A stretch of DNA of 64,000 nt from a virus (lineage: Duplodnaviria; Heunggongvirae; Uroviricota; Caudoviricetes), in IMG/VR virus record IMGVR_UViG_3300029288_003766, positions 89,787 through 153,786 of that record, one strand, 5' to 3'. The position numbers were made by a program, and so were the translations under genes. A model generated the notes under the pieces. The model ran no database searches. It had not been told where the DNA came from and was given only the letters and a program-made list of their open reading frames with translations. Below, piece after piece: positions 21,639-64,000 of this stretch; position 1 is the first letter of the stretch; every line of letters begins with the position of its first letter.

Positions 21639-22205
21639 ATGCAGCATGATGATTTTACATCCTGGACACCAGAACATTGTAAGAGGATTATACACGAGTA
21701 TCAACATACTAAAAATAAGGAATTGTTTAATTTGCTATTGGCTAGGTATGATAAGTATTTGGTAAAGCTAGCATGGCACTACCAAAAACATTTTATATCT
21801 GTACCGCTAGAGGATCTATACCACTCTGCAATAGTGGGATTTGGAGAATTTTTAGTTCAGTTTAAACAACAGGCACCATCAAGATTAATAATGGCTGTAA
21901 TAAAAGCGTATGTTAAAACAGAAATAGAGGCCCGATATAGGAGTAAACAGGAATACGAAATCAGTAATTTTAAGAGTAATAATGAGGATGAACATAGCTT
22001 AGACGATATAATGGACGCGCACTCTATCCTAGGCTCTTCTTTCTTATCTGAAAAAGAAAAGAATCTATTAATGTTACGGTTTGAAGAAAATATGACTTTC
22101 AGAGAAGTTGGCAAAAAGTTTGGTATTACCGAACAGGGGGCTTGGCAGAGATTTAAAAAGATTGTGGGGAAGATTCGTAGAGTAATGAGGAAGGAGGAAA
22201 GATGA
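21639..22205 (+). CDS. sigma-70-family RNA polymerase sigma factor
   Basis: Region 2-like LLARYDKYLVKLA...LEDLYHSAIVG; region 4 LSEKEKNLLMLRFEENMTFREVGKKFGITEQGAWQR. Confidence 0.8.
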   Translation: MQHDDFTSWTPEHCKRIIHEYQHTKNKELFNLLLARYDKYLVKLAWHYQKHFISVPLEDLYHSAIVGFGEFLVQFKQQAPSRLIMAVIKAYVKTEIEARYRSKQEYEISNFKSNNEDEHSLDDIMDAHSILGSSFLSEKEKNLLMLRFEENMTFREVGKKFGITEQGAWQRFKKIVGKIRRVMRKEER

Positions 22206-22456: not shown

Positions 22457-22663
22457 ATGAGATTGTATCCTGTAGTATTCAAAGCAGCTACCAAAGAACA
22501 GATTGCACGAAGACCTAATCCTATGAGACCAAATTTTACTTGGAGTGTTACAATTGATTTAGAAAGGGTCCATAGTATTAACCTAGAAAATGAATTGGCA
22601 AGGTTTTTGGGCAATGAAGCAAGAGTTGCTATGGATCAACTAGCTATTGATTTCCTGGTTTAA
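22457..22663 (+). CDS. FKAA-tagged minigene carrying a copy of the MCP spine-helix region
   Basis: VVFKAATKEQIARRP + RPNFTWSVTIDLERVHSINLENELARFLGNEARVAMDQLAIDF; 21/45 identical to MCP at about 63768-63900. Confidence 0.85.
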   Translation: MRLYPVVFKAATKEQIARRPNPMRPNFTWSVTIDLERVHSINLENELARFLGNEARVAMDQLAIDFLV

Positions 22664-22675
22664 GGTGGATTATTA

Positions 22676-22900
22676 ATGGAAACAAATGATATTGTAGTAT
22701 TCAAAGCAGCTACTAAAGAACAGATAGCTAGAAGACCTAAGCATAATCTGAATAATCGTGATGCTCTTATAACTACTTGGTCACCTTATATTGAGAGCGT
22801 TCGTAATTATATGCGTAATCAAGGACATCCTTTAACTGAAGATAATGAGAGAAATATAGCTCGTTGCTTGGAAAATTCTTTGAATAGGTATATTGAATGA
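22676..22900 (+). CDS. FKAA-tagged minigene carrying a copy of the MCP N-terminal propeptide
   Basis: VVFKAATKEQIARRP + WSPYIESVRNYM...LTEDNERNIARCLEN vs MCP WNPYITSVRNYM...LTENDERNIARCLEN. Confidence 0.9.
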   Translation: METNDIVVFKAATKEQIARRPKHNLNNRDALITTWSPYIESVRNYMRNQGHPLTEDNERNIARCLENSLNRYIE

Positions 22901-23076
22901 AACCAATATTTAAAGCAGCAACATCAGAACAGATTGCCAAACGGCCAAAATCTACGTCGAATTATCTTAATGCGGGATTTATTTATGCTCCTTATACTCC
23001 TGTGTATGGAACACCAAGAATTATTATGGATGAACTTCGTGTAAGGGCATCAATTAGGAAACTGCAGGATGAATAA
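22897..23076 (+). CDS. FKAA-tagged minigene (59 aa, not in ORF track) carrying a gp23-type C-terminal motif
   Basis: MKPIFKAATSEQIAKRP + NYLNAGFIYAPYTPVYGTP, resembling the AG(Y/I)xYAPYxP motif of gp23-type MCPs; ATGA-coupled. Confidence 0.75.
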   Translation: MKPIFKAATSEQIAKRPKSTSNYLNAGFIYAPYTPVYGTPRIIMDELRVRASIRKLQDE

Positions 23077-26861: not shown

Positions 26862-27581
26862 ATGAAAAATAAAGCAATAGCAATAATCGGAATAGTATTT
26901 TATATGTTAGGAGTTATACTGTCTGCTGAAGATTTACAAGGAAGTCCCAGATTCCCACCAATGTTAATATTGATTTCTGGAACAGGAATGTTGATGTTCA
27001 TCATTATGGCAACGATTCACCTCTGGAAAGATAAGAGATACCTATCAGTAATTCTAACATTATCAACCATCCTTTTTGGTGTATTAACAGTAATTTGCGA
27101 TTATGTAAAATTAAATGTAATTATCTTAACTAATATAACTTCGGTGGTTTGGATCATCGCATACTTTTGGACAATAGTAACACTCTTTAGGAAGAGAGAC
27201 TATGAAACGCTAAAGGAGAAATAATATGAAACAAGATTGGATGAAAAAAAGAACAAGAAAGATAATACCGATAGGCGGTTATGATGTGGTTGAAATAGCA
27301 AATATTGTTACTAATGGTCCACAAAGTAGTAAAGACGGACAAGAATATCGCCCTGCAAGGCCTCTGCCCTATTATTGTCTTTTAGATAGGATTAGGCTGG
27401 CTGTAGATGTTTTAAGATATAAAGCAGATGTTATATATTGGAGCGAATAAAATTAAGGAGGATTAGAATGGACATTATATGCCCTTTTTGTGGTTCAGAT
27501 AATTGCGTAAAAAGCCCGGATGTGGGTGATTTTATCTGTGATGATTGCGGAGAGTATTTTACGGAAGCGGATCTGTTATAA
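26862..27581 (+). other. membrane protein (26862-27224), hypothetical (27226-27450), 37-aa Zn ribbon (27468-27581)
   Basis: Four hydrophobic helices in the first; CPFCG...CDDCG in the last. Confidence 0.55.
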
Positions 27582-27826
27582 TGAATGATCTACCAGTTGT
27601 AGTATTCAAAGCAGCCACCCAGGAACAGATAGCTAAAAGGCCACGGCCCAAAAACTCTAATGATTTCGGATCATTCTCTGAGGTGCAAATGAGGATGGTT
27701 GTATTACGTTGGAAGCCTTATATAGATGCGGTTAATGACTATCTTCATCAGAACCTTTACAACCATCCAGATTATAGGGAGGAGTTTGGTAAGGTCTTAT
27801 CAGAATTTAGGGAGCGGAATAGGTAG
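27581..27826 (+). CDS. FKAA-tagged minigene with a diverged MCP-propeptide-like segment
   Basis: VVFKAATQEQIAKRP + RWKPYIDAVNDYL (MCP has SWNPYITSVRNYM); true start at 27581 by TAATG overlap. Confidence 0.7.
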   Translation: MNDLPVVVFKAATQEQIAKRPRPKNSNDFGSFSEVQMRMVVLRWKPYIDAVNDYLHQNLYNHPDYREEFGKVLSEFRERNR

Positions 27827-27854
27827 TTAGGTTAAAAATTTAGATCAAAATCAG

Positions 27855-27897
27855 AGCGTAGTAGGAGGGATAACATTTCCTTTTACTACGCTTTTTT
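27855..27897 (+). terminator. rho-independent terminator
   Basis: Stem AGCGTAGTAGGAGGGA / TTTCCTTTTACTACGCT followed by a T-run, before a ~115-bp AT-rich gap. Confidence 0.85.
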
Positions 27898-60240: not shown

Positions 60241-60636
60241 ATGCCACAATACCAAAATACAACAAGAACATTGATCATGTTAGGATCAGAAAGAGTAGAA
60301 CCAGGAGCAACAATATTGTCTGGGGTTTGGTACAAGACTTTACCGGTAGGTATAACACAAACTGCCAATACTCCTGTCTTTAACAATATTCTTACATCAA
60401 GTGCAATTAGTGGAGCTCAGACATATACAGTTCCTAGCACTATAACAGATAACTACTTAGTCAGGATATATGTAGCAGCTGGTGGTGCCGCAGCTTATAA
60501 ACTTAATGATACTAGCTCGGCTGCAGATAATATAGGTCCGGGAGATGTGCGTGAATTCCGTTGTAGCGAGAGATATGTAGATAACATTATATTCTCATCA
60601 GCTACTTCAGTTTATATAACTATCTTTGCTGTATAG
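60241..60636 (+). CDS. small Thr/Ser-rich beta protein, possible virion/decoration protein
   Basis: SD AGGAG; composition and position in head module. Confidence 0.5.
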   Translation: MPQYQNTTRTLIMLGSERVEPGATILSGVWYKTLPVGITQTANTPVFNNILTSSAISGAQTYTVPSTITDNYLVRIYVAAGGAAAYKLNDTSSAADNIGPGDVREFRCSERYVDNIIFSSATSVYITIFAV

Positions 60637-60638
60637 GA

Positions 60639-62939
60639 GTGGATAAAATGAAAGCAACCCCAATAAATGAACATCTAGTAGAAAAATGCGAACTTGTAGA
60701 GAGAGATTCATCTAAGCTGCCTAAAGGTATACTTGCCCGTGTTTGGTATCCTATAATGCGTTTCAATGTTAAGAACGCTAACAACAGAAAATATTCTAAG
60801 GCCGTTGCTGAGGCAATTCTTAATGATGATGATGTTAAGAAAAAGTTAGAGACAAGGACTTTATACGGGAACCAAGAACATCCTGCTGAATCAGCACTTA
60901 AATTGAATTGGCAAGAGACCTCACACATTCTTTCAGAATTTAAGATGGATGAAAATATATTGCATGCTGCATTTGATATTTTACCCACTGAACCAGGTAA
61001 GTTTATAAATATCTTGTTAGAGGCTGGTTGTTTGGTAGGTGTATCAACAAGAGCAGATGGAGAGCTAGAAGAAGCTATTGATGAGGATGGCAGCACTTAC
61101 CATAATGTTGTGCCTAAGGCCTATAGGTTCAAAGTAGCTGATTTTACAGGTGATCCAAGCACTCCTGATACCGTTCCAGAATCAATTATTAGCTCTGTCC
61201 AGAACCATTATGAAGCACATGATATTAACAAGAATGTGGCTATTGCTCTACTTGAGCGTGTCCAGACAGAAGCATCTAGAGCGTTAGAAAAGATCATCAA
61301 GGAAGATAAGCAGCACAAAGATTGTAAATGTAAGCTTGGTGATAAGAAATGCGGAAAAGGTTGTGAACATTCAATAAAAGAAAATGATGACCCTAGAGAA
61401 ATACTTCTTAAAAGACTAGTTGACTTAGGTGTTAATGATCAAAAAGCTTATATGTTTGCTTTGGATGTTGGTGGTAACTTGGGCTGGCCGGATGATTATG
61501 AAGATCAACAAGCAATGCTTGAGGAATACGAGATTAGTTCCCCTCAAGGTGTTGATGCAATTATTGAAATTGTTGACGAGATCTTTGGTAATTATATGGG
61601 TGAATCAAAGTTAATAGAAAGAATCAAGAAAATAGGTCCTAAGCAATGGAGGTTGTATTCTAAAGATGGATCAAAGAACTTAGGCACATTTGGAAGTTTA
61701 GCAGCTGCAAAAAAGCATGAAGGAGAAGTTCAGTATTTTAAGACCCATGAAGCAAAGACAAATGAGGAGCTTACTACAAGTTCAGATACTTCCGGTCAAC
61801 CTGCTAACTTAGCGGCGTCTAAAGAAGATATGGAAAATTCTAAGAAAAGAGGCGAGGAAGTAGATCGTAAGCTGGATGATGTATCAGATCAACCTGTAGA
61901 ATCGAAAATGGAGGAAGTTGTGAATAACGCAGATATAAGTTTAAAGATAAAAGCATTTTTAGATGACAACTGGAGCCTGTTTTTGAGGGATGTTGATTTG
62001 TTACCTAATGGTGATCCTAACTCTAAGAAAATGGATGCTATTAAGAATGTTTCTAAAGTGTTTAAACTACCTATAGAGACAGCTACTCAATATGTTAATC
62101 AGTTGGCGCCACAATCTAATAAGCTCTCGGCAGTACGCGCAATGAGCAACGAGAAGGTCGAACCTTCGGACAGTCCTATCTTGGACCAGTCAACAAGGCT
62201 TGCCGCTGTTATTGCCGAGAAGGAACTAATAGCAGAGCAGTTAAAGCAGATAAAAGAAAGCTACTCTAATGATGCTATCCGCTTTGCTAATGAAATAGAT
62301 AGTTTAACTAATTCTATTAAAGCTCTAAAAGAAGATAGAGATACAATAGTTAAACATTACAGTAATGATTCAATACATTTTGCTAAAGAGACTTCATCTT
62401 TGAAAGAAAAGATTAGTAAGTTAGATGAGAGCGTAGATGTTAAGAGGAATCTCCTAGACAATGCTGTGCAGAAAACTCTTGAGCAATATAATAAAGTAAG
62501 AAAACTGACTGAGGAGAAAGATAAAATAGTAGGAGAGTTAAATGAAAAACTTGTTAAACTTTCTAAAGAAATTATTGCCAAAGAAAGCGCAATCAGAGGA
62601 AATGAAAAAGAAATCAAGTTGCTCCAAGAAAACTATGAAAAAGAAATAAAGGTTTTAAATGAAGCACATTCGAAAGAGAAAATAAACTTATATGTCGATT
62701 ACCGAGTAAAAAGTATGGGCTTGAAGCTGCACGAGAATGTCTTAACACTTTTAAGACAGTCTAAGAGCAACAATCAGGTCGATATTCTTATCAGGGAAAC
62801 TCAGGACGCTTTGAGGGAAGGGTTAACACAATCTGTTAACAAGATCTCAGAAGTAGTTGTTGAGCGACCTATTGACAAGACCCAGGCCGACATAAACGAT
62901 AAAGTGGGAATCGCCTTGAAACACTTTACCGGTCTTTAA
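60639..62939 (+). CDS. prohead core protease (T4 gp21 / Peptidase_S77-type) fused to scaffold-like coiled-coil region
   Basis: NANNRKYS, LYGNQEHP, ETSH, LPTEPG, GVSTRADG, DFTGDPSTPD; long C-terminal coiled coil; precedes MCP. Confidence 0.88.
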   Translation: MDKMKATPINEHLVEKCELVERDSSKLPKGILARVWYPIMRFNVKNANNRKYSKAVAEAILNDDDVKKKLETRTLYGNQEHPAESALKLNWQETSHILSEFKMDENILHAAFDILPTEPGKFINILLEAGCLVGVSTRADGELEEAIDEDGSTYHNVVPKAYRFKVADFTGDPSTPDTVPESIISSVQNHYEAHDINKNVAIALLERVQTEASRALEKIIKEDKQHKDCKCKLGDKKCGKGCEHSIKENDDPREILLKRLVDLGVNDQKAYMFALDVGGNLGWPDDYEDQQAMLEEYEISSPQGVDAIIEIVDEIFGNYMGESKLIERIKKIGPKQWRLYSKDGSKNLGTFGSLAAAKKHEGEVQYFKTHEAKTNEELTTSSDTSGQPANLAASKEDMENSKKRGEEVDRKLDDVSDQPVESKMEEVVNNADISLKIKAFLDDNWSLFLRDVDLLPNGDPNSKKMDAIKNVSKVFKLPIETATQYVNQLAPQSNKLSAVRAMSNEKVEPSDSPILDQSTRLAAVIAEKELIAEQLKQIKESYSNDAIRFANEIDSLTNSIKALKEDRDTIVKHYSNDSIHFAKETSSLKEKISKLDESVDVKRNLLDNAVQKTLEQYNKVRKLTEEKDKIVGELNEKLVKLSKEIIAKESAIRGNEKEIKLLQENYEKEIKVLNEAHSKEKINLYVDYRVKSMGLKLHENVLTLLRQSKSNNQVDILIRETQDALREGLTQSVNKISEVVVERPIDKTQADINDKVGIALKHFTGL

Positions 62940-62963: not shown

Positions 62964-64000
62964 ATGAGTAAAGAATTAAACAGCCTAGTCGAATCTAGAT
63001 TAGCTGCTCTTCATTCAGAGCGTGATAGGTTAACCAAGTCTTGGAATCCATACATTACATCAGTTCGTAATTATATGACAAAGCAAGGCAAAACGTTGAC
63101 CGAAAACGACGAGAGAAATATAGCTCGTTGCTTGGAAAACGCTCTGTTGGAAAGTGGTGTGAGATCTAGATCATCGATATTTGAAACAACTGATTCATCT
63201 GCTATCAGCTTCTTAGGTATTCAGTTGCCTGTTATCTCAGCATTACTTCCTAGCTTGGTGTTAAACAAGCTGGCAGTAACCCAGGCATTGGATCGTAGAT
63301 CTGGTGCAGTGTTCTATATGAACGTGAAGTATGGAACAACCAAAGGTACAGTTACGACTGCTGATACAATGATCAGTCCTCTGACTGGACAGAATGCTAC
63401 CGCAGGTGGCAGACAATTTGCATCTGTGAGAGTCAATTCAGAAACATTGACCAGCTCTGGTGGTACTTTAACATATACACCTGTAGTCCTTGGTTCTGTG
63501 GTTGTTACAAACGGAACTGAAACACTGATTGACTACGCTACACCTGGTATCTTGTATGAGATGACCAGTTATGCTTCTCCGCTCGCAGGTACAGTTACCA
63601 CAGGTGGTGTGGTTACAATTACAGGTGGTACAATGAGTGGAACAGTTACATGTACCTACCAGTATGATTGGCAGACCTTCAATGGTACTACCACTAATAC
63701 TGAGAGCGTTCCAGAAGTTAATATCTCTGTTACATCTTCGACTATCACGGCCGAAGACTTCCCATTAAGAGCATACTTTACTCTAGGTGCTGCAATTGAC
63801 TTGGAGAAAGCACATGGTCTTAACTTGGAAGATGAGTTAGTGAAATATTTAGGTGGTGAGGTAAAGTTCACAATGGACCACTTAGGTATTGATCTGATGA
63901 TGCAGGCTGCTAACAACACATTGCCTGGCCAGATCGCAGTAGCAGCAACCTCACCTGGTACTTATACAGCTACACCAACCTCAGGTGAAACTTGGGTATG
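62964..64000 (+). CDS. major capsid protein (T4 gp23-like), truncated by window end (absent from ORF track)
   Basis: SD AGGAG; MSKELNSLVES...QLPVISALLPSLVLNKLAVTQALDRRSGAVFY...PEVNISVTSSTITAEDFPLRAYFTLGAAIDLEKAHGLNLEDELVKYLGGEV; frame open to 64000. Confidence 0.93.
   Translation, partial: MSKELNSLVESRLAALHSERDRLTKSWNPYITSVRNYMTKQGKTLTENDERNIARCLENALLESGVRSRSSIFETTDSSAISFLGIQLPVISALLPSLVLNKLAVTQALDRRSGAVFYMNVKYGTTKGTVTTADTMISPLTGQNATAGGRQFASVRVNSETLTSSGGTLTYTPVVLGSVVVTNGTETLIDYATPGILYEMTSYASPLAGTVTTGGVVTITGGTMSGTVTCTYQYDWQTFNGTTTNTESVPEVNISVTSSTITAEDFPLRAYFTLGAAIDLEKAHGLNLEDELVKYLGGEVKFTMDHLGIDLMMQAANNTLPGQIAVAATSPGTYTATPTSGETWV

Follow-up and report, generated by a model that had tools for sequence, protein, structure and literature searches.

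How did a small phage gene, coding for 74 amino acids, come to share 29 consecutive identical nucleotides with the MCP gene, the capsid gene of gp23 type, 40 kb away on the same strand? We analyzed a 64,000-nt stretch (the window), corresponding to bases 89787-153786 of a single virus contig of 214,968 bp. A sequence-only reading of the window had reported this identity together with a second one of 15 nt, had assigned the copied part to the MCP propeptide, and had proposed recent capture or ongoing gene conversion from the MCP gene. Both identities were found as exact matches, the longer one with two copies in the window (Table 1). With a probability of roughly 0.55, we favor short-tract gene conversion as the best reading of the 29-nt patch, because a young patch inside an old, saturated paralogue is the signature of such an event. 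We refer to the small gene as minigene 2, as it lies in a row of similarly built genes that join a common tag to a piece of the MCP.

Table 1. Features of the window discussed in the text (positions are those of the window).
Feature	Position	Strand	Basis
Sigma-70 family factor gene	21639..22205	+	Sigma70_r4 1.9e-8; 250 nt upstream of minigene row
Minigene 1, tag and MCP residues about 268-313 (strand and spine helix)	22457..22663	+	E 9e-12
Minigene 2, 74 aa, N-terminal FKAAT tag and MCP propeptide copy	22676..22900	+	ORF
Minigene 2, tag part, residues 1-22, core VVFKAATKEQIARRPK	22676..22741	+	motif on >20 genome ORFs
Minigene 2, payload (MCP residues 18-61)	22751..22882	+	29/44 residues identical, E 6e-15
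15-nt exact match (VRNYM), minigene 2	22799..22813	+	= 63063-63077
29-nt exact patch, minigene 2, codons E58-E66 + AA	22847..22875	+	exact match
Minigene 3, tag and MCP residues 435-463	22897..23076	+	E 1e-4
Minigene 4, tag and propeptide-like segment, diverged minigene 2 paralogue	27581..27826	+	36% identity/75 aa, E 5e-9
Open frame of 784 codons, prohead protease domain and scaffold-like coiled C-terminal part	60585..62939	+	PF03420 (Peptidase_S77) 1.7e-9, window 60753-61172
MCP gene, gp23 type	62964..64000, runs off window	+	Pfam PF07068 9e-14; T4 gp23 structures 1e-17
15-nt exact match (VRNYM), MCP gene	63063..63077	+	= 22799-22813
29-nt exact patch, MCP gene, codons E50-E58 + AA	63111..63139	+	exact match
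Predicted prohead-protease cut site L61-L62-E63 / S64	63144..63155	+	alignment to T4 gp23 L-T-E65 / A66

The capsid locus

Read from the genome, the full MCP has 490 residues and its gene ends at the window-equivalent position 64436. The phage GenBank collection gave no DNA match and no cultured-phage MCP more than 27% identical to that of the window; since no cultured MCP comes closer, the phage, judged by its capsid protein, is of an uncultured lineage with a T4-type head. The protease-scaffold frame directly upstream of the MCP gene encodes about 763 aa counted from its first ATG, and the same order, with an orthologue of this frame ahead of the MCP gene, is conserved in five related loci. 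The genome also has a RecA/UvsX-family recombinase gene (3.5e-38).

In T4, the gp21 prohead protease removes the 65 N-terminal residues of gp23 by cutting after residue 65 (PMC9958956). The HMMER alignment places ...FLTE/AEIGG of T4 gp23 on ...ALLE/SGVR of the window MCP, from which the latter is predicted to be cut after E63, at an L-x-E site. The propeptide defined in this way is variable across 100 related MCPs (0.36-0.51 identity to the reference per ten residues), and its sole conserved island in this set, MCP residues 51-60, has a score of 0.81. The 29-nt patch sits in this island.

Minigene 2 and its protein

The ORF of minigene 2 has a good ribosome-binding site, AAGGTGGA, upstream. 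Its N-terminal part carries the tag motif VVFKAATKEQIARRPK (FKAAT), which is common to more than 20 ORFs of the genome, and exact runs of 15-21 nt are common to the tag-coding segments of different genes. The payload follows: residues 26-69 of minigene 2 align without a gap to MCP residues 18-61, which bears out the protein-level match reported in the sequence-only reading (29/44 residues identical, E 6e-15). By the alignment to T4 gp23, all of this MCP segment precedes the predicted cleavage point behind E63, in agreement with the earlier assignment of the copied part to the propeptide. Minigene 2 starts with METNDIVVFKAAT, with neither a leader nor a cut site ahead of the tag, and the LLE cut site of the MCP is replaced by LNR. 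No Pfam or PHROGs family was found for any of the minigenes.

The gene is also present, with its tag, payload and neighbours, on L001, a contig assembled independently from another sample. Between the two alleles, whose proteins are 84% identical, dS is 0.54 and dN is 0.084 (dN/dS 0.15), and dN is 0 in the tag; we regard minigene 2 as a real gene under purifying selection. Eleven columns are invariant in the minigene (W35, Y38, V42, M46, L53, T54, R59, R63, C64, L65 and N67), all of which pair with identical MCP residues in the 44-codon alignment, and several of the matching MCP positions show little or no variation in a set of 60 MCPs. The AlphaFold model of minigene 2 is a helical hairpin with a mean pLDDT of 80.7 (88-94 in the payload). 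Its helices span residues 26-34, 36-49 and 55-73 and those of the modeled MCP propeptide residues 2-26, 28-40 and 47-69, so that the payload and the propeptide are predicted to have the same helices. A complex prediction of minigene 2 with the 763-aa protease-scaffold protein scored 0.00 and is used here neither for nor against binding.

The 29-nt patch and codon usage

The 29-mer occurs exactly twice in the window, with 0 occurrences expected in shuffles, and is the longest exact repeat between the minigene cluster and the whole 215-kb genome, in which a search allowing up to 7 mismatches gave no third copy. It sits in an alignment of 62-67% identity. For the codon-based null models, we kept the amino acids fixed and redrew the codons at the identical-residue positions. 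With genome codon usage, the mean longest run was 9.6 nt and the probability of a run of at least 29 nt was 1.8e-4; with position-specific frequencies taken from 12 MCP genes, this probability was 3.4e-4 (8e-5 without the window gene), and the nine codons under the MCP’s own codon usage gave P = 5.6e-4. Peptide conservation and codon bias together leave the patch unexplained (P about 1e-4 to 6e-4). A stricter run test confined to the synonymous-capable codons gave a weak p = 0.05. The 15-nt match is likewise weak alone, as the chance of identical codons there is 0.03.

Codon identity is concentrated in the block. In minigene 2, 18/27 degenerate codons for identical residues are the same as in the MCP gene, against 10.9 +/- 2.4 expected, and outside the block the count is 9/18, about the level of chance. 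Synonymous divergence from the MCP gene (overall dS 1.4) is likewise uneven, with pS > 0.75 outside the block and dS 0 inside. The excess is confined to minigene 2 and does not reflect a bias of the whole genome, because the other minigenes lack it: minigene 1 is fully re-coded relative to the MCP (9/25 identical codons, 10.6 expected), and the counts are 7/12 (4.6 expected) for minigene 3 and 5/12 (5.2 expected) for minigene 4. Compared with the window MCP gene, each of the 11 orthologues has 3-10 mismatches in the 29 positions, and minigene 2 has none. This evidence is good, yet it is based on nine codons, one patch and one genome.

An explanation with no DNA exchange at all is retained ancestry or coincidence, in which the best-conserved peptide, an AT-rich codon preference and slow synonymous change together would leave the two sequences alike. 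We keep it as an unlikely explanation because the MCP genes hardly vary at GCT-CGT: 10-11 of the 12 have GCT and CGT there, and the DNA of this portion may change slowly. The p = 0.05 of the stricter run test is in its favor, as is CGT-TGY-TTG-GAA, which is common to all three minigene alleles. The three codon-based nulls, at 1e-4 to 6e-4, argue against it, as do the saturated synonymous flanks and the MCP orthologues with 82-91% identical proteins, which already differ from the window MCP at 3-6/29 nt.

If instead the 29 nt served both genes as a signal in RNA or DNA (a regulator site, a small-RNA target or a structure), selection on the nucleotides themselves would preserve the block. In each context a hairpin of 7 bp can be placed across the block, and a 19-nt core recurs in the relatives L017 and L021, but folding is no better than that of shuffles (z = +0.78 and -1.26). 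Since orthologous MCP genes vary freely at the synonymous sites of the block, we see no universal nucleotide constraint on it; moreover, the L001 minigene has three changes in the block, one of them non-synonymous, and the genome holds no third copy. We consider such a signal improbable.

Relatives and the age of minigene 2

When 1.8 billion representative proteins were searched exhaustively, without a profile, for homologues of minigene 2, two diverged proteins of the same build were found, P0123 (72 aa, 59% identity) and P0125 (67 aa, 53%). P0125 is encoded on L017, a contig syntenic with the replication module of the window genome at about 63-64% protein identity, where its gene adjoins a DnaB helicase gene; the minigene after it is also tagged and carries the MCP island FLGIQLPV...LPSLV as its payload. 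The minigene-2 family consists of only four clusters among 5.8 billion proteins, none of which shares a contig with an MCP gene. IMG/VR searches with minigene 2 and with the sigma factor gave no match, and the four MCP-bearing IMG/VR records are fragments that do not reach any minigene cluster. The sole terminase relative found, L002 (70% identity), has the sigma factor and the membrane protein with no minigenes there, and its 83.6-kb record gave no match to minigene 2. We rejected P0130 as a fifth member of the family, as it is the untagged N-terminal exon of a split MCP gene, and, at 55% nucleotide identity, we also rejected the derivation of the 5’ half of minigene 2 from a P0130-type allele.

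Minigene 2 is by all appearances old rather than newly captured, because its synonymous flanks are saturated and the tag-and-propeptide design recurs in the diverged P0123 and P0125. The recent capture proposed in the sequence-only reading is not upheld on these grounds. A history in which the whole payload was captured recently from the resident MCP gene and then diverged very fast, with the block alone spared, would agree with the payload being closer to the near MCP clade (27-30/44 residues) than to the other minigenes, and with its E50, R35 and N36, which are as in the MCP clade of the window. Saturation of the flanking synonymous sites, however, requires long time and not selection, homologous tagged minigenes occur in phages at only about 64% proteome identity, and minigene 2 is under purifying selection; we hold this history to be improbable as well. 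A nearest-neighbour comparison of the payload with 120 MCPs did not separate concerted evolution from slow MCP evolution. An assembly artefact, that is, a chimeric join via a shared k-mer, has a negligible probability, since the identity covers only 29 nt with in-frame, minigene-specific flanks on both sides and the gene recurs with its tag, payload and neighbours on the L001 contig, which derives from a different sample; the check for misassembly raised earlier is answered by this independent contig.

Alleles, direction and age of the patch

Short-tract gene conversion also makes a prediction about alleles, in that the copy would track the MCP of its own phage, and we tested this on putative same-sample pairs of minigene and MCP only. 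First, L017, with its minigene, and L021, with MCP P0006, come from one JGI sample, have GC contents of 36.8% and 37.4%, and are about equally related to the window genome (63% and 65% protein identity); we infer that the two are linked. This putative pair has a 19-nt run at the same ARCLEN core as the window patch (P 0.004 with local codon usage, 0.02 with MCP codon usage). Second, the Cys codon of the block is TGC in both window genes and TGT in L017, L021, L001 and L006, so that the choice of TGC or TGT agrees within 3/3 pairs, the putative pairs L017/L021 and L001/L006 included. Third, L006 is doubtful as the source of the cognate MCP of L001 despite the shared sample, as it appears to be a more distant phage: its MCP is 73% identical to that of the window genome, versus 84-95% for the proteins of L001, and the blocks of L006 and L001 mismatch at four sites. 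The MCP gene of L001 itself was not found. The L001 block is only 2 nt from the block of the L020/L021-type MCP and would fit tracking if the MCP of L001 were of that type. Taken as they are, the putative pairs are consistent with tracking of the cognate allele, and are not decisive. Of the earlier proposal, gene conversion is retained as the best explanation of the patch, and the word ‘ongoing’ is consistent with the putative pairs and goes no further than that.

The hints at the direction of transfer conflict. The codon ATA, which makes up 2/24 Ile codons in the MCP, is unique to the window MCP among 12 MCP genes and is present in both minigene alleles, which suggests flow from the minigene to the MCP. 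Conversely, L001 and P0123 carry V where the window minigene and all MCPs carry A, which suggests that the patch was copied from the MCP to the window minigene. At all three block sites where the L001 minigene differs, the window minigene is the same as the window MCP; two of these are two-state sites. The alleles of the minigene differ by a dS of 0.54 and the blocks of the window minigene and MCP by nothing, so by a rough estimate the patch would be younger than the split of the window and L001 minigene alleles.

A possible mechanism and function

In the explanation that we propose, minigene 2 would be an old, translated paralogue that combines the 22-residue FKAAT tag with a helical-hairpin copy of the propeptide lacking the L-L-E site. 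Short-tract non-reciprocal homologous recombination (ectopic gene conversion) would have acted between it and the MCP gene. Purifying selection on the conserved island peptide would preserve enough DNA similarity for strand invasion, which the phage’s own RecA/UvsX-type recombinase could carry out. The product of minigene 2 could be a non-cleavable propeptide mimic with a head-cargo tag that acts in prohead assembly or maturation and engages whatever the MCP propeptide engages during assembly; we read it in this way because it keeps the conserved propeptide residues, lacks the cut site, and carries the tag with no cleavable leader. Conversion would then keep the mimic matched to the resident MCP allele. 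That conversion simply serves this matching is a tentative idea, which we hold with clearly less confidence than conversion as such. We infer the conversion event, its recurrence and any function of minigene 2 from comparison of the sequences.

Should the patch prove to be a conversion tract, the evolution of the capsid gene and that of its tagged fragment copy are linked. Minigene 2 would then stay near the resident propeptide, as a mimic or a competitor would need, and an essential capsid gene could receive or donate sequence within the genome.

A more far-reaching and quite improbable version is that the tagged minigenes are expressed ‘spare parts’, re-coded conserved MCP islands that swap short tracts with the MCP gene. 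We mention it because inserts break two related MCP genes at islands also used as minigene payloads, L006 (AAIDL/EKAHG) and L018 (around FET/TDSSAISFLG/IQLPV), and because the rare ATA codon hints at flow from minigene to MCP. If it were true, the phage could re-code or vary segments targeted by defences, the segments at issue being targets of nucleases, homing-endonuclease introns, CRISPR spacers and capsid-sensing defences.

Relation to known systems

Neisseria (pilE/pilS) and Borrelia (vlsE cassettes) are known examples of ectopic gene conversion between a gene and partial copies of it. As in those systems, the genome has several partial copies of one structural gene elsewhere, an identity patch in a diverged alignment, and a RecA-type recombinase available. 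Unlike in those systems, the minigene copies are translated, joined to a common tag and under purifying selection, and only 1/4 copies has a patch; in particular, and unlike the silent pilS donors, minigene 2 has a ribosome-binding site, a start codon, a conserved tag and a dN/dS of 0.15.

Several known proteins resemble minigene 2 in part. Its payload is homologous to the segment upstream of the cut site in the T4 gp23 propeptide, and its predicted helices match the MCP propeptide model; in contrast to the gp23 propeptide, minigene 2 is a free-standing, tagged protein of 74 aa that lacks both the HK97-fold body and the L-x-E site. With the T4 internal proteins that carry a capsid-targeting sequence (IPI-III and Alt), it has in common a short N-terminal motif shared with many head-module proteins, but it lacks their cleavable leader (about 10-15 residues with an L/I-x-E end) and starts almost directly with a retained tag. 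Like microProteins, it is small and consists of a conserved helical part of a larger parent, with the conserved residues kept; unlike them, it is found in a phage and has an added tag, and its action as a binder or inhibitor is putative. The Gol region of T4 gp23 takes part in Gol-Lit-EF-Tu exclusion (PMC3014915). Like the Gol peptide, the payload is a conserved stretch of a gp23-type protein, short and conceivably active by itself; the Gol peptide, however, belongs to the first quarter of mature gp23. The Gol-equivalent island lies at about residues 78-110 of the MCP, beyond the end of the payload at residue 61. This island is the payload of another minigene in L017.

In the literature searched we found neither tagged capsid fragments nor gene conversion in an MCP propeptide described, and the tag and capsid-fragment design in huge phages appears to be undescribed in the literature and the family libraries searched. 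Gene conversion itself is known; what is new here is the evidence that one tagged capsid-fragment copy exchanges sequence with the capsid gene. In a review of the field, the recruitment of T4-type capsid proteins and cargo to the scaffolding core is still called “mysterious”, and the interactions between core and capsid proteins are described as unsettled (PMC9958956); a natural, free-standing, tagged propeptide would be a ready-made probe for this recruitment question.

Neighbouring minigenes, other tagged sites and interrupted genes

Minigene 1 has 55% nucleotide identity to the MCP gene with a longest run of 7 nt and is, by this measure, too diverged for recombination with it. Between the window (22457-22663) and L001 (2-136), minigene 1 is nearly identical, with a dS of 0.075, whereas dS is 0.37-0.82 for minigene 2 and the genes that follow, which suggests a mosaic boundary between minigenes 1 and 2. 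Minigene 3 (22897-23076) is missing from L001 (alignment at L001:360-380), and both of its junctions in the window carry ATGAA, a stop/start overlap; from these two observations, minigene 3 behaves as a cassette gained or lost at microhomology. Directly after minigene 4, a strong terminator-like hairpin (27853-27894; 18 pairs and a T run) closes a co-directional block whose first gene is the terminase.

Two MCP genes of relatives and one gene downstream of an MCP gene carry insertions. In L006 (1289-2413), the MCP gene is broken exactly between ...FTLGAAIDL and EKAHGLNLEDEL... by an insert of about 1.05 kb that encodes a 296-aa ORF with a weak ROS_MUCR match, after which the MCP frame resumes at nt 2355. 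The insert is probably an intron or an insert with a homing-type gene, and its site falls inside the MCP segment that is copied in minigene 1. In L018 (126-900), the MCP gene is in at least three pieces, ...LFET, TDSSAISFLG (about nt 573) and IQLPVIAALLPS (about nt 853), with inserts of about 250 nt each inside the most conserved, Gol-equivalent island of the MCP. In L021 (8828-10915), a 695-aa gene downstream of the MCP gene contains an intein (Intein_splicing) and is adjoined by a SegE-like GIY-YIG gene.

A second site of tagged minigenes was observed beside the DnaB helicase gene, both in this genome (64215-64822 of the genome, before the start of the window) and in L017 (5694-6241). In this genome the site consists of a pair of tagged minigenes immediately upstream of DnaB, with payloads that are not from the MCP; in L017 it is a pair immediately downstream of DnaB, with MCP payloads.
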